DNA of 64,000 bases from Octopus vulgaris. Lineage: Eukaryota. The stretch is from the NCBI GenBank assembly GCA_951406725.2, contig OX597828.1, positions 66,774,001 to 66,838,000 of the forward strand, given 5' to 3'. The position numbers were made by a program, and so were the translations under genes. The notes under the pieces are model-generated. The model made no database searches and was not told where the DNA came from. It worked only from the letters and a program-made list of their open reading frames with translations. Within the stretch, counting starts at the first letter, position 1. Each line of letters starts with the position of its first letter. Shown here piece after piece: positions 5,981-57,059 of the stretch.

Positions 5981-6642
5981 CCAGACTACAGCTATAGAAC
6001 ACATCAGCCTACAGTTCATGCAGTGGGATTGAACCCTGAACCACATGGTTCAAAGTAAGCTTCTTAACCACACAGCCATACTGTTTCAATCTACTTAATT
6101 AGAAATAATTACTCCAATTACTTCACAGTTGTATAGCTGGCATCAGGTATGTGAAGTTAACAAGCACAAGGACAATGGATTAGAAGAACCATTATTAGTA
6201 TGACGAACAAAATACCTGTGGTGTTTAGCAATGTTTTGAGTCCATGTCTCACTCAGGTGAACTTCACCGTTCATCTTCACGGTTGACAGAATAAACAGAC
6301 TACACACCACCCCTGCTTCCAAATGTGAGAAACTGATACAAGAAAGTGAATGCAATAGAGAAAATAACCTAGTATATAGACAGTCCTATGTATGATGACG
6401 CATATACTCCAATTTTCCCACATATCTGGCCAAGACCAATACTACCTGAAGTTTATTTCATAAAAAGGTTCACCACTTGCTACATTTAACATGTATTTCA
6501 AGCAGGTACGATTTCCTTGCTGCTAGTTGTATACTCTGGGAGTATTAGACAAAAACAAGGCGTAAAACCCTCCTTGAGATATTGAAAAAAAAAAACAAAA
6601 GTTAAAAATAGTAAACCAAACAAAAATAAATAGAGTACACAC

Positions 6643-6783
6643 TGGTTCTAAGATTTTATGGTATTTGCCGAATCTTTCGATAATCCATGCTTCTTGTTGT
6701 GGGACAAATAATAACATTGTGTTCATTGGTAATCTCGATCGATGCCGTACATGTTGTTGGGCTCCGCTGACCATGTTCAGAAC
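6643..6783 (-). CDS. STOML2: Stomatin-like protein 2, coding exon 2
   Basis: tttcag|GTT..CCA|gtgtgt; VLNMVSGAQQHVRHRSRLPMNTMLLFVPQQEAWIIERFGKYHKILEP, with the STOML2 FVPQQEAW signature; 141 nt, phase 0 to 0. Confidence 0.95.
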
Positions 6784-8227
6784 CTGAAAATGCAAACAAG
6801 AGACAATAATTAAATTTGTGACATTCTCAAATCGAAAACAAACCAAATTTAACTCTTGATATCAATCCATCTGAGACCACCCATCACCACCACCACCAAC
6901 TGAAAATCTCTTGTTAAAGTACTATTACTGTTGTAATTTGAGTAGTATTGAGGCTAACGTTTCATTGCAGTTTGTGTCCAAATCACTGGCTTAATATACA
7001 AATACAGGTTATTTAGGTAGCATTAGATCAAATACAAAAGTATGTCACTGGTCCAAGCAGTTTCAGAAAAGCTGTCACATAAATAATTTCAACTTCTGTA
7101 AATGTTGAAGTAAATTTAGATTACGAATGACATTGAAATCAATTTAAAATCAAAAGTATTCATCATCATTTAACGTCTGCTTTCCATGCTAGCATGGGTT
7201 GGACGATTTGACTGAGGACTGGCGAACCAGACTCCAATCTTGATCTGGCAGAGTTTCTATAGCAGGATGCCCTTCTTAATGCCAACCACTCCGAGAGTGT
7301 AGTGGGTGCTTTTACATGCCACTGGCACGAGGGCCAGTATGGTGGAACTGGCAACGGCCACACCCAAATAGTGCTTTTTATGTGCCACCTGCACAGGAGC
7401 CAGTCCAGTGGCACTGGTGATGACCTTGCTTGAATGTTTCACATGCCATCAGCACAAATGCTAGTAAGGCAATGCGGTAATTGCTAGTAAGGTGACGCAT
7501 GCTATGTAATTGATTAAATTTTGTCAAGGCTCTCCAATAAGTTTAACCCTTTCATGTCAGATTTGTAATGAAATCTACTGTTTGTATTTAAACGAACTTT
7601 GAAGATAAAGGATTTAGCAAAATAACTTTTCTAATTAATTTAGTTTCTGATATATAAGAAAAGATTCTAACATAAAATTATAATGGAAAGATTTAAATTA
7701 AAATGGACAGTTCTCTATCAAAGAACAGTGGAAAATTGGGTTCAAATTGTAAGACTTTTGTTGACTTCTGAGTCTTTTAAAGTCAACTTTCAATCTATGT
7801 ATCACATTGTTGAAAATAACAATGGAATTATATTGTAATAAGTTTTTAAAGCAGATCTCAGAGAAAAAGAGGTTAAGCAGAACCCATGCCTACCTGATCT
7901 CAACAACGATAATGAGCAGCCAAATATAAAACACTTTTATACCTGTGTGTTGCTGTTTAACATCAGATCAACCCTGATCAGGTAGATCTGTATCTTTTCG
8001 GAGGTATCTTGAACTACATAATCCAATATAGGATGTGATTTGAAGATTTGGCTGCTATTACTTATAGATTGAGCTACCATGTAGAGACTCCCTTGTTGAC
8101 TCAAATATATGTTTAGTAACTGTGCATCAAAATTAAATTGTAAATACTTCTTATAGATTTCATGGCTTTAAATAAAATATGAGAATTCTTCCAGCATAGG
8201 GTGACAGTTTAATCACAAATAACAGTA

Positions 8228-22912: not shown

Positions 22913-23495
22913 TCCATAAAGGGCTAAACATAGAGGGGACAAAGAAGGACAAAGGGATTAAGTCGATTACATCGACCCAGTACGCAACTGGTACTTAATT
23001 TATCGACCCGGAAAAGATGAAAGGCAAAGTGAACCTCGGCGGAATTTGAACTTAGAACGTAAAGACAGGCAAAATACCTATTTCTTTACTACCCACAAGG
23101 GGCTAAACACAGAGGGGACAAACAAGGACAGACAAAGGGATTAAGTCGATTACATCGACCCCAGTGCGTAACTGGTACTTATTTAATCGACCTCGAAAGG
23201 ATGAAAGGCAAAGTGGACCTCGGCGGAATTTGAACTCAGAACGTAGTGGCAGACGAAATACCTATTTCTTTACTACCCACAAAAGACAAAACACAGAGGG
23301 GACAAACAAGGAGAGACAAAGGGATTAAGTCGATTATATCGACCCCAGTGCGTAACTAGTACTTAATTTATCGACCCCGAAAAGATGAAAGGCAAAGTAG
23401 ACCTCGGCGGAATTTGAACTTAGAACGTAACGGCAGACGAAATACGGCTAAGCATTTCGCCCGGCGTGTTAACGTTTCTGCCAGCTCGCCGCCTT
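22913..23495 (-). repeat. Head-to-tail trimer of the Nin-like SINE (~184-bp period)
   Basis: TATTTCTTTACTACCCACAA recurs at 23079 and 23263; only the rightmost unit keeps the GGCGGCGAGCTGGCAGAA head. Confidence 0.85.
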
Positions 23496-23826: not shown

Positions 23827-23916
23827 ATGGCGCCTGCGGAGGACGAGTCGAGTGAAGAAAACATTCTTTACAATCTCACTGTACATGCCGAATGGAAAGT
23901 GGATGCAGAACCATTT
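23827..23916 (+). CDS. NBAS: NBAS coding exon 1
   Basis: aaaATGGCG start; MAPAEDESSEENILYNLTVHAEWKVDAEPF|gtaaat resembles the NBAS N-terminus (EETILYDLLVNTEW); 90 nt, phase 0. Confidence 0.9.
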
Positions 23917-31212: not shown

Positions 31213-33134
31213 GTGAGTTTGCATTCTGACTTCTGTAGGAAACCAAGCTAATTGCTTGATATATGGTACATATTTTATCTTTTGATGATTGAAAGTTTGA
31301 TTTAAAGTCTGAAGCCTTTTTCTTTATAGCTTTATATGGTAGCGTTGGCAGGGATGAATATATATCGGTTGGGATGAGTTCTTTCTGATTCTGATACATG
31401 TTGACAAGGAGAGTGGAAAGAGGGATGGTGATGTTGAGGTTTCATGTTTTGGTGCAGTGTGGAATGGGAAGCAAAGTGCTTAGGGAATGTGCAGTTTTGT
31501 TTGGAGAAAAAACATTTTTGTATCGTCATCATCATCATCATTTAACGTCTGTTTTCCATGTTAGCATGGGTTGGATGGCTTAACAGGAACTTGTAAAGCC
31601 AGGGGCTGCACCCACCAGGTTTCATAGTCTGGTTTTGGCTTGATTTCTATGGCTGGCTGTCCTTCCTAACTCTAACCGCTCCACAGAGTGTACTGGGTGC
31701 TTTTTATATGGCACCATCACAGCTGCTTTTTAAGTTGTGCCAGCAGCAGTTCTTTTTATGTGGAACTAGAACCCACACCAACACATTTTACATGGCACCT
31801 TTGTTTTAGGATCTGAATTCTGTTGGGGTGGGTGGGTCTTCTCAAGCCCAGCAATGCACCACACACCTCGGTCTTCTGTCATCTGATATGTAGTGATGAG
31901 GCAGTGTTGAATTGATTTTATGAGAGCAGGTTGAATTTAGATGAGAAGAATATAATGTTTCTATTGTTGTATCAAAGAGACCTATCTTTGTCATTCATTT
32001 CTGATCATCATCATGCTCTCCATGCTGGCATGGGTTGGACAGTTTGACATGGAGCTGGCTAAGAAGGAGCTGTCTGGACTCCAGCTGTCTGTTGTGGCAT
32101 GGTTTCTATGACTGGTTGCCCTTCCTAATGCCAACCACCTAATAGAATGTGCTGGGTGCTTTTTACATGTCACTGTCATGGTTGCATTTACCTATCATCA
32201 AAGGCATTCCACATATGACCATTCTGTCTCCTGGTCCCATACATAATGTTCCTTCTTTTATATCAGACACAAGTGTGTATTGGTCTCTATTGTCTAATCT
32301 GTTTCACAGTAGGGCATGATTTGAGTGAGATTTTGCTGCTGTTTATTGTAAGTCAAGTGACTACATAGAAACTCCTTCATTGGCTTAACAAATATAATGT
32401 TTGAAGTGTTGTTGGATTAGGCTGTGGGGAACGAAGTCAGAGAGGTGATTTGTCAATGTCAGATGTTGAGATTGGTTAATATACTAATAACTGTTGACTG
32501 AGGTGTAAAGGTTGATTGGGAAAAGCAAACAAGTTGTGGGTGGTGAAGTTTTCTAAGAGGAGGAGAGTTGAAGATGAAGTTTGCATGTAACATGAGATGC
32601 AGTCAATCGTTAGGCAATGAGTTGGTAACTTAAACCACAATAAACAACAGATGATAATAATCATCATCATCATTGTTTAACGTTCGTTTTCCATGCTAGC
32701 ATGGGTTGGATGGTTCGATCGGTGTCTGGGAAGCCAGGAGGCTGCACCAGGCTCCAGTCTGATCTGGCAGTGTTTCTACAGCTGGATGCCCTTCCTAATG
32801 CCAACCACTCCGTGAGTGTAGTGGGTGCTTTTTACGTGCCAGTGAAGGCTGGCAACGGCCATGATCGGTTGGTGGTTTTACGTGCCACCGACACAGAATA
32901 AATGAGATTGTCTGCTGGACCAGCTAGAAGTCTTTGTTTCTAACATTTAAGATTTGGGAAAAGAGTGAGAGGAAAATAGATTCTGTATAAGCATAGAATA
33001 GTAATATTTTGAATAAAAGTGGGTAAAATAACAGTGAAAATCCAATGGCCTTCATAATGCCAAACTTAATATGTAAAATAAATATAGGTTTTATGCATTT
33101 CACTTCTGAGTCTATTCTGAAAAATTATTTGTAG

Positions 33135-33312
33135 ATCTTCTCATGATGATTACAACAATATAATTGGAAGATCTTGTGTCATGCCTGACACTTGTCCCCA
33201 GTGGCGCCAGATTGCTTGGAGTAGTGATGGTGCATTGCTTGCCGTTTCTCACAGTAATGGCATTATTGAAATATTCGATATGTTTGGAAATCCTCTGTTC
33301 AGTATCCCATCT
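33135..33312 (+). CDS. NBAS: NBAS coding exon 6
   Basis: ttgtag|(R)SSHDDYNNIIGRSCVMPDTCPQWRQIAWSSDGALLAVSHSNGIIEIFDMFGNPLFSIPS|gtaagt; beta-propeller region; 178 nt. Confidence 0.95.
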
Positions 33313-33538
33313 GTAAGTTTTACTGATTTCATATTATTTGTTTTCTATTTCTTTTGTAATATCTTTGAAATATTTTCCTTATAATTTGATGTTACCAGTT
33401 TTATAATTCTTTACTAAATGCTAACACCAGTTTCAACTTTTCAGCAGTTAATACCATTTTTGTAAAATAATTTGAATGTTTATGGAGATGTACTTGCATA
33501 GCGAGTGACTTGATCTGAGATCGTGTGCTGGAACGAAA

Positions 33539-33828
33539 ACAATTTCAGCATGGAAGGTGTTTATAAGCCATTTAAGAAACACACAAAAACCGTTAGATTC
33601 ACTTCAACATTTAAATTTAATTTGTCAAAATATTTTCGTCGCTTTGAGACCGTGACCTGTTCACTGACAAAACTTCGTGCTGCATCTCACAAAGTTTTGT
33701 CAGTGAACAGGTCGTGGTCTCAAAGTGCCGAAAATATTTTGACAAATTAAATTTAAATGTTGAAGTGAATCAAACGGTTTTTGTGTGTTTCTTAAATGGC
33801 TTATAAACACCTTCCATGCTGAAATTGT
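33539..33828. repeat. Near-perfect palindrome (137-bp arms, 16-nt spacer), Penelope-like inverted ends
   Basis: 33539-33675 is the reverse complement of 33692-33828 with few mismatches; each arm holds a hammerhead-like motif. Confidence 0.9.
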
Positions 33829-34608
33829 AATTTGAATGTTTTCATTAAGGAAACAACATTAGCCAGGCTGTTTTTGTTTAATTTTTTTCTGAAAATTATT
33901 ATACATTTATTTCTCAATTCTATTAACATCTCTTTCATCATTCCATCTCCTTCTTAAACTGCATCTTCCCCCATCACACAGCTCATGCCTTTGTTTTCCT
34001 AATTAATTTACTTAACAACCTAGATGTAGCTGCCTTTCACTGTCTCACTTCCATGACTCCCATCTCTACCACCTCCCCACCCACTCCTAACATTCTGTTT
34101 CTCCGATCATACTTGTACTTGGTTTCATTTCATCCTCTCACCTTAGTTTTCTCTCTGTCATCACCTCCATTTTGTGTGTGTGCACGCATACACATGCACA
34201 GTAGAGTTTGTTATATAATTTTTAACCTCCTCATCATCATCATTGTTTAACGTCTGTTTTCCATGCTAGCATGGGTTGGACGATTTTGACTGAGGGCTGG
34301 TGAACCAGATGGCTGCACCAGGCTCCAATCTTGATTTGGCAGAATTTCTACAGCTGGAGGCCCTTCCTAATGCCAACCACTCCGAGAGTGTAGTGGGTGC
34401 TTTTTACGTGCCACTGGCACGGGGGCCAGTCAGGCGGTACTGGCAACGACCTTGCTCGAATCCTTTTACACATGCCACCAGCACCTCGTTAAAATTTTCC
34501 TACTCTTAGTTGGTTATGCTCTCACCTGTTTTCAGAAAATCAAAACAAAACCCGTGCTGCATATATGTTTGATCTATATTCAATGCATTACCCTCTGATT
34601 TCACGCAG

Positions 34609-34706
34609 GTCACTGAAACATCTTCCAGTAATGTTGGAGTACCCACAGATTTGACACACAGTGTTGCAGGACTTGTGTTTTTAGAGAACACCAAAGTGAA
34701 AGATGG
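34609..34706 (+). CDS. NBAS: NBAS coding exon 7
   Basis: acgcag|VTETSSSNVGVPTDLTHSVAGLVFLENTKVKD+GG|gtatgt; resembles DLSYAIAGLIFLE; 98 nt. Confidence 0.9.
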
Positions 34707-34957
34707 GTATGTTGAGCCAGATTTTAAATTTCCTTAGAGAAACTATCTCAGAAGAATGTTTCACATAATATCATTTGTTCACATGGTAGCATGGGGTTGG
34801 CTGGGAAGTTATTTGGGGCAGGATTTGGCTATGGGACGAGTCAGACGCTTATCTTGTTGCCTACTCTTGCCTGTTTTTCCCAAGTGAGAGATGTCTTAGT
34901 CCTACAGGTCTTTGAAAGTGTAGTGCAACTGGTTGTAATGTCAACATCACCAACACT

Positions 34958-35291
34958 TCAGTTCAACTCAACTGAGGTCCATATTGACCCCGGGATTCAT
35001 AGAAGATATTTTTGGGTCCACAGATGTAATATAGTAAATTGGGGGTCCATGGTAATTTTTCAAGGGCCATCGAAAAAATTCTGCTTCAGAACAGTAAAGT
35101 TTATGTGCAATAAATTGGTTACACGTCCCTATTACATAAAATATTTTAACAATTTTTATACAAGTCCTAATAATATTTAATCATAAAAATACAAAAAAAG
35201 ATTTTTTAAACATTGAATGGCTATGGGGGTCCACCAGAGTAAAATAGGAATCAAAGGGGTCCATAGGTAAAAAAATTGGTTGAGACCCCTG
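34958..35291. mobile_element. Probable hAT/Charlie-like non-autonomous element
   Basis: Right end GGTTGAGACCCCTG (reverse complement CAGGGGTCTCAACC), repeated GGGGTCCA subterminal motifs; left end decayed. Confidence 0.45.
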
Positions 35292-35715
35292 AGTTAAATG
35301 GCATTTTCTATGCTATCATGGTTTGGACGGTTCGACCGGGGTCTGGAAGCCATGGAGACTGCACCAGGCTCTAGTCTGATTTGGCAATATTTCTACAGCT
35401 GGATGCTCTTCCTAACGCCAACCACTCCGTGAGTGTAGTGGATGTTTTTTACGTGCCACCAGCACAGGGGCCAGAGCATGCTGGCAAACGGCCACAATCG
35501 GTTGGTACTTTTACGTGTCACCGACATGGACACCAGTCAGGCGGCGCTGCCCTCGTAGATAGATATGTGATAGCTAATTACTGTAAATAATTACCTGTTA
35601 TGTGAATTTCCCCTTTAGTACCAAGAAATAAAACTTAGTTTTATTTATGGAATATTTGATGAGAATGACTAATTATCAATATTGCATTATTTCTTCTTGT
35701 TTCTTTTATTCTCAG

Positions 35716-36016
35716 AACCGCACATCTACTAGTTGTAAACTACTTGGGAAAGTTAAGTAAATACCATGTTGACCGTAACAGCACTTATCGATTACTACAC
35801 ACTTTTATGCTGACCAGTGAACATCCTCAGGGTGTTACAGGGTTAGTTTATCTTCCACAACACAGTGCACTTATTGTTGGCAGTCACGCTCCGGTGGCTG
35901 CTGGCTTAGATGACAGCATGTCTCAAGCAGAACAATATGGTCTTAGTCTATGGCGTATTCTCTCAGATTCTCCACATTACAAACTAGTCACTGACTATGA
36001 GCAAGACTTACATAAG
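35716..36016 (+). CDS. NBAS: NBAS coding exon 8
   Basis: tctcag|(G)TAHLLVVNYLGKLSKYHV..GLSLWRILSDSPHYKLVTDYEQDLHK|gtaagt; 301 nt. Confidence 0.95.
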
Positions 36017-37612
36017 GTAAGTTCTTTTACTCTCTTTCTGTTTTATTTCAGTTATTTAGTTTGTCTTGAAATATCAAGAACTAATGTTGTAGAAATTTTC
36101 TGTGAAATTAAAATATATTTATCAAAGAATATAACAAAAGTATTTTTCTTCTTGATTTGAATAATTTTAGATTCCATAAATTTCATTAAACTTCATGATG
36201 GACACACTTTCATTTGACAACCTGTATTTGTAATACAATTACCTCATTTTGTTTTAGTGCTGTAATTTAGGCTTCAGTTGTGGTATAGGTAGTTGACTGA
36301 ATTGATAGTTTTGGATTTCAGTCTGAAGAATTGACTGATAATATCATCCCTCAGTAGCTGCCAACCTTATGCTGTGTCCAAAGCTGATATACTTAACTTT
36401 ACAGAGCTCAGTCGATTATGCTGTAGATCTTATATTATAAAAGAGAAGTGGATCACCATCTGTTTGCCTGTTACAACATCTATTAGAGGGAGGGAGAGAA
36501 AGAGAGGAATCAAAATATACATATTTTTAGAAGAGGAAAAGAAAAGGTTGTTGTTGAGATAGAAATACAGCTGTGGAGGAAGAGTGAGAGTAAGAGTGTG
36601 TGTGTGTGTGTGATAGATAGATAGTTAGTGTTGTCACCATAGTAACTAACAATTTCTGATTTAAAACACAAGAATTTTGAGTGCAAGTCTGTCAGCACAA
36701 CACAACACAGACTTCAAAACAAGGCCATATATATATAAAAATATATATGTATATAGTGATTTTTTGTTGTTGTTTGTGTGAGTGTCTGTGTATTTCAATA
36801 TATTGATAATGCAACACAGACTTGAAAAACAAATTTTCACCTTGAACAATTTAAGAAGGTACATGCACGATTAACAAATATTTTTACCAGCAGCATAGTG
36901 ACAGATTACAACCTAGTATATATTATCTAGTAGCATGTAGCTAAAGCCTTCATGGTTGCTCTAAATGTTGTCTGTCGCTGTTACTGACGATCTTACCTGA
37001 GAAAGCGTTCTTGAACATAGTTATGACTGAATCTCAAAAAAAGCTCAGGAGAAACCTGCATCTAGGATGGTGCAGCAGCTGTACGTATGGACATCAAAAG
37101 CCACATGACTTTTTTGTATAAAGTCACTTCATCTTCTGACCCATAGATGTGATGTCTGCTCTCTCTCTCTCTCTCTCTCTAGTTTCCTACTGCTTGGCCT
37201 CTACTTGTCAGACACATGTTGACCAGCCCTCTGGAACTCTTTCCCTGGTCGTGTCTTTCCTACAGGTGTTGAGTTGCAAAATATAAAGTGGAACATCAAT
37301 GGCATCAGTCTCAATAGTCTCAGAAGACATGGACACTGACCTTTCTTTCAGACTCAGCAAGTTAAAAAAGAAAAAGAAAAAAGAACAGATACAATTCACT
37401 TCTGCAATTGGCAGAAACACTGGTTGCCCATAGTGAGATATAATGAAACTGACAAGACATCCAGGAATTAAGTGATTGAAAACAACAAAAAACAATAACA
37501 ACATTTATGTTAGAAATTTACAATATATTTAGAAATTCTATACAGGATGTAATTTCTGATAATTAAAAGTTTCTAACTCTGTAATTATTAGTTTTTATAA
37601 TTTTTGTTGCAG

Positions 37613-37678
37613 AGTAAACCAAAAAGTTTCCTCAAGAAATTATTTCTGTTACCAAAATTATCATGGAAAAATAGCAAG
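37613..37678 (+). CDS. NBAS: NBAS coding exon 9
   Basis: ttgcag|SKPKSFLKKLFLLPKLSWKNSK|gtatgt; 66 nt, phase 0 to 0. Confidence 0.82.
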
Positions 37679-38639
37679 GTATGTTTCGTTTTTTCATTTA
37701 CTTGTGTTTATTATCGAAACAAAACAGCTGAGTGTATAAGGTATTGAATTACCTATGGCTTAGGGATTCAAGTTTTTTGTACACACATTAAATATTGATC
37801 AAAAATCAATGGAAATTATAGTTGTGATACTAGTGCCGGTGGCACGTAAAAGAACCATCCGAACATGACCGTTGCCAGCGCTGCCTCAACTGGCCTCTGT
37901 GCTGGTGGCACATTAAAAGCACCCACTACACTCATTGGCATTAGGAAGGGCATCCAGCTGTAGAAACACTGCCAGATCAGACTAGAGCCTGGTGCAGCCT
38001 CCTGGCTTCCCAGACCCCGGTTGAACCGTCCAACACATGCTAGCATGGAAAACGGACATTAAACGATGATGATGAGGATGATGATAGGTAGAACACTTAT
38101 TCTTCAGTCGCCATGGTTTCATCTACTCAGCGTCGTTGTTGTTTCTGGGCAAGATACTACATTCTACATGAGAATTAAATATCTCTGATTACAATTACTG
38201 GTGAAACTGTTAATGAGTTGTTGACCCTTATCACTGAAGAGCAGACTGTCTCTGTAACCTAATGACTATAGTTGCGTGTATTACACGTTTAAAGCATTTA
38301 AAAATAGCATGGCATTGCAGATTTTCTACCTATTCAGGTTGGGAGAAATTAATCACTTATCTTAAATGAATATTTGAAAACAAACAATCATATCATAATT
38401 ATCTTGAAGCTACAAGATAATGAATGATAGATTTAAAAGAAGGTGAATAAGTAAGCATTACTTATTTGGCAAAGTAATTTGAATGCTGAAGGGTTATACA
38501 CAGTACTTAATATGGTTGGAATGTTAACTTGATGATATCTCTTCAGAGCAATACAATGTTTTTTATGATCATTTCAATTTGTTTTTGATGAGCTGGAAAT
38601 TTAGATTTAGATTATTTTTTTTTTATTCTTTGAATCTAG

Positions 38640-38768
38640 GATAGTATTTTCAAGATGTGCCTGTCTCCTGATACCAAACAACTGGTGACTTTACATTATT
38701 CTGGAGAACTCGTTCTTTGGGATGTTCCATCCTTGCGCAAAAGAAAATCTTGGTTACATGAAGATCAG
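38640..38768 (+). CDS. NBAS: NBAS coding exon 10
   Basis: atctag|DSIFKMCLSPDTKQLVTLHYSGELVLWDVPSLRKRKSWLHEDQ|gtaatt; resembles DGIFKMSLSPDG; 129 nt. Confidence 0.95.
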
Positions 38769-54047: not shown

Positions 54048-54728
54048 GTAAATGGGAATTTGAAATTGAAATGTATTTAGGTTAAGATATGAGTTGAATA
54101 AGTCTAGGTTTTCATTCATCTGTGCTAGCGGGGTGCAACGAGCACCATATGAGTATGATCATTGACAGAGCGACTAACCGGCTTCTGTGCCAAGGGCACC
54201 ATTTGAGTGTGATCGTTACCAGTGTTACCTTACTGGCATTTGTGCCCGTGCTAGTAGGGTGCCAAGAGCACTATCCAAGCATGATTGTTGCCAGAGCAGC
54301 CAACTGGCTTCCGTGCCGGTGGCACGTAAAAGGGCACCATTCGAGTGTGATCGTTACCAACGTCACCTTACTGGCACCTGTGCTGGTGGCATGAGTAAAA
54401 AGATTCGAGCGAGGTCATTGTCAGAACTGCCTGACTGGCCCCTGTGCCAGTGGCACGTAAAAGCACCAACTACACTCTCGGAGTGGTCGGCGTTAGGAAG
54501 GGCATCCAGCTGTAGAAACTCTGCCAGATCAGATTGGAGTCTGGTGCAGCCATCTGGTTCGCCAGCCCTGTCAAAATCGTCCAACCCATGCTAGCATGGA
54601 AAGCGGACGTTAAACAATGATAATGATGATGATGATAAATATTGACTTGACCAGCTACATCTCATCCATTTTACTGATAAACTGTTTCCAAATATGTTTA
54701 TAACTTAATTTGTTGAATTATCTTTCAG

Positions 54729-54875
54729 GCTAGTGATGTGTGATGATGAGGATTTAATATACGACAGTGATGAAGAGGAAGATTATGATCCTTTCAGTCC
54801 ACTTTGCATTCAAAGAAGACAAGATAAAATATTTCAAAGAAGAGAAGAATTGCTCAATCAGATAGATTTTCAGTC
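54729..54875 (+). CDS. NBAS: NBAS coding exon 18
   Basis: tttcag|(R)LVMCDDEDLIYDSDEEEDYDPFSPLCIQRRQDKIFQRREELLNQIDFQ+TC|gtgagt; 147 nt. Confidence 0.92.
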
Positions 54876-55174
54876 GTGAGTATATACACACTGTCTGTAT
54901 ATATATGAGGTTTTTGTTACATGCTGACCACTTGATAAAATCATTGAAGTGATTTTATTCTTAATATAATGAATATAAATGAAAATATTTTTGCTCGTGA
55001 TCAAAATCGCATTTGCTGTGATATTATTATTTTGATAAATAGCATGTGGTTGAAATGAAAAATGTAAATTCAACTTTCACTAGTATATACGTGCAAATTG
55101 TATATGTATGGTTGTGCGGCTTTGGTGTTCATATGAATATGTATATATATATTTGTGCTTGTATGCTTCAGAAT

Positions 55175-55240
55175 ATTTGTGCTGAAGAGAGCAGTAAATA
55201 TTTTATTACTTTTAGTTCGAAATTGGTCCAATACACAATT
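55175..55240 (+). ncRNA. Candidate minimal type I hammerhead ribozyme, copy 1
   Basis: TG-CTGAAGA-GAGC(AGTAA..TTACT-TTTA)GTTC-GAAA-TTGG-TC^CA; predicted cleavage after 55228; proximal stem I is short. Confidence 0.55.
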
Positions 55241-55433
55241 AACTGGAAGATTGTATTTACTATTTCTCGTTTGCTCATTTACAACCTGTGCTAGAGGAGA
55301 CGTAAGGTGGTTTTTAGTGTCATCTGGCATCTATGTCTAGAGTGTGGAGAGGTTTTCCAAACCCCTTTGATATAATTGTAAATAGAAATTATGAGGTTTA
55401 TATATATTTATTTGTGCTTATATGCTTCAGAAT

Positions 55434-55495
55434 ATTTGTGCTGAAGAGAGCAGTATTTTATTACTTTTAGTTCGAAATTAGTCCAATACACAATT
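55434..55495 (+). ncRNA. Candidate minimal type I hammerhead ribozyme, copy 2
   Basis: TG-CTGAAGA-GAGC(AGTA..TACT-TTTA)GTTC-GAAA-TTAG-TC^CA; predicted cleavage after 55483. Confidence 0.55.
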
Positions 55496-55816
55496 AACTG
55501 GAAGATTGTATTTACTATTTCTCATTTGCTCATTTACAACCTGTGCAAGAGGAGACGTAAGGTGGTTTTTAGTGTCATCTGGCATCTATGTCTAGAGTGT
55601 GGAGAGGTTTTCCAACCCCCTTTGATATAATTATGTAGATAATTGTAAATAGAAATTACTTACAAGGTTTTTGTTACATGCTGGCCACTTGATAAAATCA
55701 TTAGTCATTTTATCCTTAATTCTATAAAGAATATATGTATGACTATGTGTATGTGTGTGTGTGTGTGTGTATATATATATGTAAATATTGAACAATGAGA
55801 ATGAATGTTAAAGATT

Positions 55817-56033
55817 CTTTATTTGTGGATTAAGGCTACCATTTGTTTCATGCCAAGGAACCCCTTAACAATTATCAAGCCTGTCACATGGAACATTAGT
55901 CTTCATCTCTATTTTGGATTAATTGTTTTAATCCAAAATGGAGATGAACATCAATGTTCCATGCGATAGGCTTGATAATTGTTAAGGTGTTCCTTGACAT
56001 GAAACAAATGGTAGTCTTAATCCTCAAAAAAAG
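55817..56033. repeat. Foldback palindrome (~106-bp arms, 5-nt spacer)
   Basis: GGATTAAGGCTACCATTTGTTTCATG..TTTTGGATTAA-ttgtt-TTAATCCAAAA..CATGAAACAAATGGTAGTCTTAATCC. Confidence 0.9.
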
Positions 56034-56364
56034 TGTGAGTAAAACACTTCATTTCACTATTCAGCTGTAAATGAGTTACCCTGTGATAGACTGGCATCCC
56101 ATCCAGGAGGAATGTTGTGATGTTGGTCATCAATATGCCATTGAAACTTGTTCATCATATACAGAATGTTTGATCGCCTGCAACATTTAGAAATATAACA
56201 GTTATTACTGCTGACTATATTATGTTTAGTCTCTTCCAAATGTTTATAATTGATCAATTAACAACAGTTTACTATCTCTTATCAGTTTAATATATTGACC
56301 ATCCTGTTTATATTTTAGTAGAATTTAAGCCTACATTCTTCTTTGTTTTTTCTTTTTCTTACAG

Positions 56365-56443
56365 ACTGTTATTAGAACAGAAAGAACTTTGCAGAGCTCG
56401 GCTGAAATTATTGCAGTACCTGTACCGATTGAGGACATACGAG
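56365..56443 (+). CDS. NBAS: NBAS coding exon 19
   Basis: ttacag|(S)LLLEQKELCRARLKLLQYLYRLRTYE|gtagac; 79 nt. Confidence 0.95.
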
Positions 56444-57059
56444 GTAGACATTTTAATTTCCATTAAACAACAGTATTTCTACCTTTTTTTTATTATCTGA
56501 ACTGAGTGAAATTTACTAAATAGAAACTGTATGGAAGTCCATTTTGTGTGTGTCTTTTATCTTTCGTCTTGTTTCAGTCATTAGCATGTGGCCATGCTAA
56601 TTTATTAGTTGAATGAATTGACTGCAGAATGTTTTTCGAATGAGTTCAGAATGTCTTTGTTAATGTCAGCCACTTAACAGCATGTACTGGGTGCTTATCT
56701 TCTGGCACTAGCACTAAGATGAAGACCCCCTTCAACTGAATAGGGTACTGTGGGGAGTGGGGTGACTTCATGCTAGGAGATGAGTCATCATCTAGCATGA
56801 AGGAGTGAGAAAAGGATCCAGAACAGAACAGGTTTTTTGCTGTAGAAGAGCTACTACCTGGCTGTTCACATTATGGAAGAAAAAGTGGAGAAGAATGGGT
56901 GGGGCTGGAAAGAATGCTAAAATAATGGTGATGAGTCATAAGGCTTTGTCCTTAAAGTACAAGCTGAGTGGGGACAGAACAAGGAGTGTGGTTGGGTAGA
57001 GGTTGCAAGAGTGTATGGGGAGCGTGAGAGATGGTTAGAGAAGGGGATATGTTAGAGAC

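Follow-up and report, generated by a model that had tools for sequence, protein, structure and literature searches.

Amniote genomes carry ultraconserved intronic hammerhead ribozymes, which are present in few copies and are conserved across species. Metazoan non-LTR retrozymes, as portrayed in PMC7229834, are AT-rich elements without an open reading frame (ORF) that bear a type I hammerhead and occur as monomers and partial tandems; the molluscan example in that account is the mussel, with elements of ∼350–390 bp. Retrozyme consensus sequences are reported to span 51–972 bp, mostly in short arrays (bioRxiv 10.64898/2026.07.22.740005). Insertions of Penelope-like elements, in the description given in PMC8557442, target (TA)n, end in a tail and include partial tandems as well as inverted copies truncated at the 5' end, and Penelope-type hammerheads are reported to cleave weakly in vitro (PMC4209133). 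Within introns, slow hammerhead cuts are reported to leave splicing intact and fast ribozymes to abort it (as cited in PMC2995048). A literature search of mostly open-access papers found no hammerhead family described with Penelope in octopus or in cephalopods.

Here, we analyze two hammerhead motifs in a stretch of 64,000 nucleotides of octopus DNA, referred to below as the window. By every sequence feature that could be tested, the motif qualifies as a type I hammerhead, and the repeat that carries it as non-autonomous and Penelope-derived. The explanation that we hold with good confidence is that a dispersed, ORF-less type I hammerhead repeat of ∼490 nt, likely non-autonomous and Penelope-derived, is present at the locus in a copy that was duplicated in part, that has decayed and has no role in NBAS, the gene in which it lies. 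The features of the locus are as follows.

54729–54875, + strand: upstream NBAS coding exon, ∼residues 597–646 of P0002 (tblastn match at 54727–54870, 83% identity)
54876, + strand: donor GTGAGT, the 5' splice site after the upstream NBAS exon
54905–55732, + strand: whole repeat insertion, comprising a full ∼490-nt unit, a 5'-truncated second unit and a 3' tail (family HMM positions 2–470, 229–471 and 2–74)
54905–55140, + strand: family segments upstream of the ribozyme, with a tail-equivalent at 54905–54977 followed by a non-coding segment; absent from the second unit
55177–55238, + strand: hammerhead 1, with stem I 55177–81/55234–38, CUGAAGA 55182–88 and GAAA 55219–22
55189–92/55215–18, + strand: stem II of hammerhead 1, with an extension 55193–97/55206–10
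55222–25/55229–32, + strand: helix III of hammerhead 1; triplet AUA 55231–33, predicted cut after 55233
55239–55399, + strand: segment downstream of the ribozyme, ending with 7–8 nt of tail and then the duplication junction 55399/55400
55400–55660, + strand: second, 5'-truncated unit, 96% identical to the first and beginning within the element's internal TA tract
55436–55493, + strand: hammerhead 2, with stem I 55436–40/55489–93, CUGAAGA 55441–47, stem II 55448–51/55470–73 and GAAA 55474–77
55477–79/55485–87, + strand: helix III of hammerhead 2, 3 bp; triplet AUA 55486–88, predicted cut after 55488
55662–55732, + strand: 3' tail of the usual family type, ∼70 nt, which passes into a TA/TG microsatellite
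56365–56446, + strand: downstream NBAS coding exon, ∼residues 647–673 of P0002 (tblastn match at 56366–56446; 3' end approximate)

Matches to the Nbas_N domain at 33127–38768 and the exon map of P0002, a 2334-aa relative that aligns exon by exon in tblastn from the first coding exon at 23827 to the window end, both lie on the + strand and bear out the sense orientation given to the pair in a preliminary description of this DNA. The intron is taken as 54876–56364 because the flanking exons join in frame. In the tblastn map of P0002 they rank as exons 14 and 15 of those found, and two unmatched gaps precede them, so the intron is about number 16–17 among the NBAS coding exons; its earlier numbering as intron 18 was not reproduced. 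Look-ups of the NBAS exons in PDB and the ESM Atlas matched nothing, and a search for the Sec39 family, run in the stricter mode only, gave no match and is uninformative. The insertion begins ∼30 nt past the NBAS 5' splice site. An intronic location is unremarkable, because ∼43% of retrozyme copies in Xenopus are reported to be intronic, though depleted for size (bioRxiv 10.64898/2026.07.22.740005).

Other sequences of various types are dispersed through the window. A tandem repeat at 22914–23445 (period 184, 2.9 copies, 89% alike) lies ∼400 nt upstream of the NBAS start codon, and a mariner-type transposase fragment is found at 145–465 on the + strand (Pfam Transposase_1, E 2e-16). Head-to-head with NBAS, an exon-like frame on the − strand at 6523–6861, a short piece without a Pfam match, resembles the start of stomatin-like protein 2. 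In the same NBAS intron, just 3' of the element, 55817–56033 form a near-perfect hairpin with 106-nt arms, 90% complementary and 5 nt apart, which is probably a MITE and has sub-threshold microRNA-family matches in Rfam.

The motifs reported earlier are all present: CTGAAGA at 55182 and 55441, GAAA at 55219 and 55474, GTC at 55226 and 55481, and a stem II of GAGC/GTTC with its AGTA(A)/(T)TACT extension, within a tandem direct repeat at 55142–55632 with a period of 255–259 and 95% matches. Both copies have the type I core order of CUGANGA, GAAA and UH. Under a strict type I descriptor (stem I ≥5, stem II ≥4 and stem III ≥3, thresholds chosen after the motif was seen), these two sites are the only matches in the 64-kb window, and 150 simulated 64-kb sequences contain none. 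A relaxed descriptor that admits a fold around the GUC triplet yields 0.087 matches per simulated window. The plain pattern CTGANGA..GAAA is uninformative alone, with 11 matches in the window vs 5.7 expected and 6 of 100 shuffles as high. An Rfam scan returned no hammerhead family match at E≤5 or E≤10, such a match not being a defining requirement. The repeat search also found that 54908–54945 recurs at 55665–55702.

Similarity searches with each half of the repeat, which scored 40 candidates apiece (one search had 231 in view), returned at least 45 DNA matches each. A family profile identified 134 segments in the collected loci, 58 of them spanning the ribozyme, and a core-pattern search supplied 12 further short-helix copies, so that at least ∼70 copies bear the ribozyme; these copy numbers are floors. 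Units follow one another head to tail at a spacing of 439–535 nt at 11 loci, vs 757 at the window. The latter value is about 500 + 255. The family monomer is not 255 nt: the 255-nt unit, previously seen as a retrozyme-like cassette, is better described as a local partial duplication of the ∼490-nt element. The family unit has no ORF and no coding match. Its copies lack 5' sequence to varying extents and are frequently preceded, at the 5' side, by a partial copy in inverted orientation, and ∼22 of 28 tails (∼70–80 nt), judged by eye, run into TA-type repeats. The internal TA tract at family model positions 216–250 (55125–55152 in the window) is a frequent breakpoint and insertion site among the copies. 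Pairs of hammerheads within 2.5 kb comprise six on the same strand and seven on opposite strands, and among the collected loci the arrays hold at most two units with a ribozyme. With its partial tandems, inverted 5'-truncated copies, tails and microsatellite targets, the family shows the hallmarks of Penelope-type insertion, and the repeat is likely a non-autonomous Penelope-derived element, that is, a non-LTR retrozyme. If cleavage in vivo had left a trace, 5' ends might cluster where the RNA is cut, but the 87 segments that reach the 3' part show no clear peak; their starts spread over model positions 1–429, with four at 314–324 near the cleavage site, and alignment ends are imprecise.

Compared with the metazoan non-LTR retrozymes portrayed in PMC7229834, the octopus repeat is likewise a non-coding, AT-rich, dispersed sequence that has one type I hammerhead per unit and occurs as monomers and partial tandems. 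It differs from them in its ∼490-nt monomer, in that no long arrays were seen, in its age and decay (tree end branches of ∼0.11), and in a helix III of 3–4 bp inside a 10–12-nt palindrome with an AUA triplet. The minimal hammerheads (min-HHRs) of Penelope pseudo-LTRs, as presented in PMC4209133, share with it the type I arrangement, a stem I of 4–5 bp, a long helix II, a palindromic helix III region, high variability within a genome and opposite-strand pairs a few hundred bases apart. One octopus subfamily with a short helix III (AUCGAU-C) fits them closely, having the absent or tiny palindromic helix III that distinguishes a min-HHR. The window copies depart from this form: they have a real helix III, which in that account occurs mainly in fungal and protist elements, they have no bulged base between positions 9 and 10.1 (one is present in a sister subfamily), and no ORF is attached. 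The earlier classification as a minimal type I hammerhead of the Penelope/retrozyme class therefore stands, by sequence features, for type and class, and fails on ‘minimal’ given a helix III of 3–4 bp and a stem I of 5 bp. In the style of insertion, the resemblance is to the Neptune/Naiad-type elements of PMC8557442, which share the partial tandems, the tail, the (TA)n targets and, on the 5' side, a 5'-truncated copy in inverted orientation, although the octopus unit lacks RT and GIY-YIG and has a tail of ∼70–80 nt vs 30–40. In that description Naiads lack canonical hammerheads, whereas the octopus repeat bears one. Like the ultraconserved intronic hammerheads of amniotes (cited in PMC7229834), the window motif is in sense in a host intron; unlike them, it belongs to a decayed dispersed repeat, has private destabilizing changes and may be polymorphic.

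Within the family, the ribozyme core is better conserved than other positions. The 11 core columns are 0.94 conserved vs 0.80 in 370 other columns, and N7, at 0.33, shows all four bases. Some copies were recruited via core patterns, and hence the comparison was restricted to the 41 copies recruited by DNA similarity alone, where the values are 0.93 vs 0.83 (permutation p=0.004; columns not independent) with N7 at 0.45. The family alignment thus finds the core conserved above background (0.93–0.94 vs 0.80–0.83) and N7 variable, as in a once-functional type I hammerhead, and on this sequence pattern selection once maintained the motif as a hammerhead. Across the genome, two core patterns had 28 and 19 matches vs 0 and 0 for the reversed controls; seven of the 28 fail the family model and two match it weakly, and five of the 19 fail. 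These non-matching or weak matches were excluded from the family counts, with the exception of L065, one of the 58. Other hammerhead-like motifs, beyond the family or at its margin, occur at L065 (G000, C1:172268980), L088 (C23:7367543), L090 (C28:25319326) and L122 (C6:106901709), with perfectly palindromic helix III regions of 12, 10, 10 and 6 nt, respectively, and a stem I of 6 bp in L122. A covariance model run on the collected loci also recognized the short-helix copies. Furthermore, U1.7 (55240) is 91% conserved and A55214, at the close of the stem II bulge, 95% conserved; judged by conservation alone, they resemble the tertiary contact between a loop-2 A and U1.7 described in hammerheads (PMC11875169). 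Inner helix III is more self-complementary than its shuffles (0.58 vs 0.40 in 39 long-helix copies and 0.83 vs 0.52 in 16 short ones, the copies being related), which suggests that it may have been used in dimers.

Immediately after GAAA, copy 1 reads TTG GTC CAAT A CACAA. Here helix III is ATTG/CAAT (A55222–U55232, U–A, U–A and G–C) and stem I is TTGTG/CACAA, so that in the register of the AUA triplet a stem I of 5 bp (55177–81 with 55234–38) takes the place of the 2-bp stem I noted before as the weak point. Pairing in this register was assessed in alignment A1, which holds the 36 of 58 copies with a long helix III (a second alignment, A2, holds 15 copies), and reaches 91% for helix I, 88% for helix III and 67% for helix II, with compensatory changes. 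For example, the helix III pair 55224–55230 is UA in 20, UG in 7, CG in 5 and other in 4 of the 36 copies, and the pair closing stem I, 55181–55234, is GC in 30, AT in 16 and GT in 2 of the 58 copies, with 6 unpaired and 4 gapped. Stem II is the weak point, its first pair being standard in just 9 of 36. The short-helix subfamily has the classical palindromic form TTGTA-CTGANGA...GAAAUCGAU-C-TACAA with stem I altered on both sides; TACAA directly follows AUCGAU-C and pairs with TTGTA. This GC/AT swap falls mostly in one clade of the tree, and the shuffle controls ignore relatedness. Because the short form is a single clade, the covariation of stem I represents about one or two independent events.

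The family is old, since the end branches of the tree have a median of 0.11, nearest neighbours other than the window pair are at most 91% alike, and the full core, by a loose pattern, is retained in 34 of 58 copies. The tree took in 55 of the 58 ribozyme-bearing copies. In it, the two window copies are sisters (branches of 0.019 and 0.035) on a stem of 0.086 with support of 100/100; they are 96% alike vs 83–86% to their nearest relatives, differing by six substitutions and a 4-nt indel in ∼235 nt. Taken together, this similarity and the placement on a long stem suggest that the pair arose locally after insertion. During the active era of the family, its RNA would have cleaved itself at AUA in the long-helix subfamilies or at AUC in the short-helix subfamily, as a monomer or as a dimer through the palindromic helix III, and a Penelope-like partner would then have supplied the RT and endonuclease that copied it into (TA)n sites. 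The NBAS copy would have inserted long ago, and its 3' half would later have been duplicated locally, as the tree suggests, leaving two hammerheads 255 nt apart by accident. Any cuts in NBAS pre-mRNA would follow 55233 and 55488, would probably be slow, with copy 2 ahead of copy 1, and would probably be tolerated by splicing.

It is possible, if somewhat unlikely, that other individuals have one hammerhead here, the tandem pair being confined to the haplotype that was assembled or produced when the assembly joined two alleles. This alternative concerns the pair only and is compatible with the explanation as a decayed element. It arises from contigs of sequencing runs, labelled X1–X4. In X3, a 309-nt contig runs unbroken over 55426–55734 with one difference, and so passes the position at which a branch to copy 1 would be expected; a 60-nt contig equals copy 2 exactly from 55399 except for its first eight letters; and a contig of X4 matches 55426–55582 with no differences. 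On the left side, X1, X3 and X4 share four substitutions and indels relative to the window at 54895–54997, and the divergence there (five substitutions and four indels in 251 nt for X1) is similar in size to the difference of one copy from the other. No contig bridging 55399/55400 was found among those examined, which can show presence and not absence, and X3 has no depth at 55295–55329, which is likewise not proof of absence. Against this alternative, contigs drop rare variants, contigs with one copy cannot show the absence of another and the analysis took in 76% of X3; the junction has at most 1–2 nt of microhomology, unlike a typical overlap mis-join; and the runs bear three different organism labels. 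The contigs are thus a weak hint that other individuals may carry a single copy. An intronic contig of X1 (54868–55121) and the contigs of other family copies in X2 are uninformative on cleavage or circles.

That the repeat is instead the pseudo-LTR or 3' end of an autonomous Penelope-like element, its copies being 5'-truncated remains and no separate family, seems to us unlikely. Hammerheads usually lie in pseudo-LTRs and most genomic copies of such elements are truncated, as set out in PMC4209133, and remnants of Penelope-like RT and GIY-YIG with a Zn-finger-like linker adjoin two copies in the genome. However, the unit closes on itself head to tail at the 11 loci described above, no copy runs on into an ORF (in flanks of mostly 1.5 kb), and the unit itself is without the RT and GIY-YIG ORF that defines an autonomous Penelope-like element. 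Penelope-like ORF remnants occur near just two of ∼70 regions, L061 and L062; they were rejected as partners of the family, as they are separated from it by TA tracts and their own 3' ends differ, and the best tblastn hit of the unit against these ORFs has an E of 0.47, which is no match. The remnant at L061:4630–5929 is a 5'-truncated Penelope-like element with a Zn-finger-like linker, a weak GIY-YIG match (Neptune/Nematis-like) and an inverted copy; it has its own hammerhead-like GAAACCGGTC in the 3' UTR and adjoins a family copy across (TA)n. At L062:3400–6500, on the − strand, lies a decayed, near full-length Penelope-like ORF with a DKG motif, RT, thumb and endonuclease, broken by frameshifts, stops and SINE insertions.

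We also doubt that the pair is a still active cassette, in which a 255-nt RNA (55234–55488) that may circularize or affect splicing would be released by monomers or by an AUA dimer whose palindromic helix III spans 11 nt. Both cores are intact, with a G10.1–C11.1 pair and the 5-bp stem I, both motifs are in sense in a transcribed intron, helix III pairs across the copies at 9 of 11 positions in the AUA-register dimer, and the conserved U1.7 and bulge A recall the contact of PMC11875169 by analogy. The earlier expectation of two cuts 255 nt apart would hold in the AUA register too (55233/55488). Against such activity, the lowest-energy fold of copy 1 (−19.6 kcal/mol, frequency 0.22) consists of two other hairpins, in which CUGA and stem I are buried; the private A55198 (G in 46 of 53 relatives) sits in that misfolded structure; and stem II of both copies has a G–U where G–C is usual in the family. 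The active fold is predicted to make up a share of ∼2e-7 for copy 1, 2e-4 for copy 2 and 7.5e-10 for the dimer, and the copies rank 25th and 9th, respectively, among 31 scorable ones, although the folding model ignores tertiary contacts and co-transcriptional folding and may understate activity. The weak in vitro cleavage of Penelope-type hammerheads (PMC4209133) and the local, recent origin of the duplication also speak against a working cassette. On these predictions copy 1 misfolds and the pair would cut poorly if at all. Nothing points to a host function, and the predictions make the active fold a rare one, especially for copy 1. Still less probable is the related proposal that a chance duplication has built a working double hammerhead (AUA, 11-nt palindromic helix III) 360–610 nt past the NBAS 5' splice site, from which an excised 255-nt RNA could circularize and alter splicing in carriers only.

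The favoured register is AUA, with predicted cuts after 55233 and 55488, five bases later than the GUC cuts after 55228 and 55483 proposed at first; both family comparison and energies point this way. The monomer energies of copies 1 and 2 are −5.4 and −3.4 kcal/mol for the AUA fold vs +4.7 and +4.6 for the GUC fold, and the constrained dimer ensembles have −70.1 for the AUA register vs −53.8 for GUC. Among the 39 long-helix copies, the triplet is AUA in 32 and fits NUH in 37, while the GUC position reads GUC in 8 and NUH in 24. Likewise, A15.1–U16.1 is paired in 33 of 36 aligned copies in the AUA register vs 23 of 36 in the GUC register. The structure in the GUC register scores above its shuffles as well, with 90.7% pairing in its short stem I vs 91.1% for AUA; the register reuses conserved helix III bases, which accounts for this pairing. 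Very little probability can accordingly be given to cleavage at GUC by a dimer, via ATTGGT/ATTAGT, of minimal hammerheads whose stem I has 2 bp: although all six cross pairs are indeed Watson–Crick or G–U (AT, TG, TA, GT, GT and TA) and the homologous position in the short subfamily is the true triplet (AUC 7, AUU 4 and GUC 3 of 16), of which the window GUC may be a vestige, the fold is less favourable, by ∼8–10 kcal/mol for the monomer and by 16 kcal/mol for the dimer, gives no account of the conserved 5-bp helix TTGTG/CACAA, and has lost its triplet, through lack of U16.1 or of H17, in 15 of 39 long-helix copies, a whole GAC subfamily among them. With the register at AUA, an assay of the junction joining 55483 to 55229 aims at the wrong junction, the correct one being 55488 to 55234. 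The correction is a practical one, as assays aimed at 55228/55483 would miss the product.

The element described here, most likely a decayed one, adds one animal genome, that of an octopus, and one family to the known Penelope and retrozyme hammerheads. Within the family there is a small natural series on helix III, with a 6-nt palindrome and AUC in one clade and a 10–12-nt palindrome and AUA in the others, which allows a direct comparison of monomer and dimer cleavage. Under the proposal of a working double hammerhead, helix III would have switched within the family between a 6-nt palindrome that works in dimers only and a 10–12-nt palindrome usable as monomer or dimer. Should the pair prove both active and polymorphic, it would offer a comparison of splicing with one vs two ribozymes in a native gene, and a working polymorphic pair would be a natural test of intronic ribozyme cleavage.
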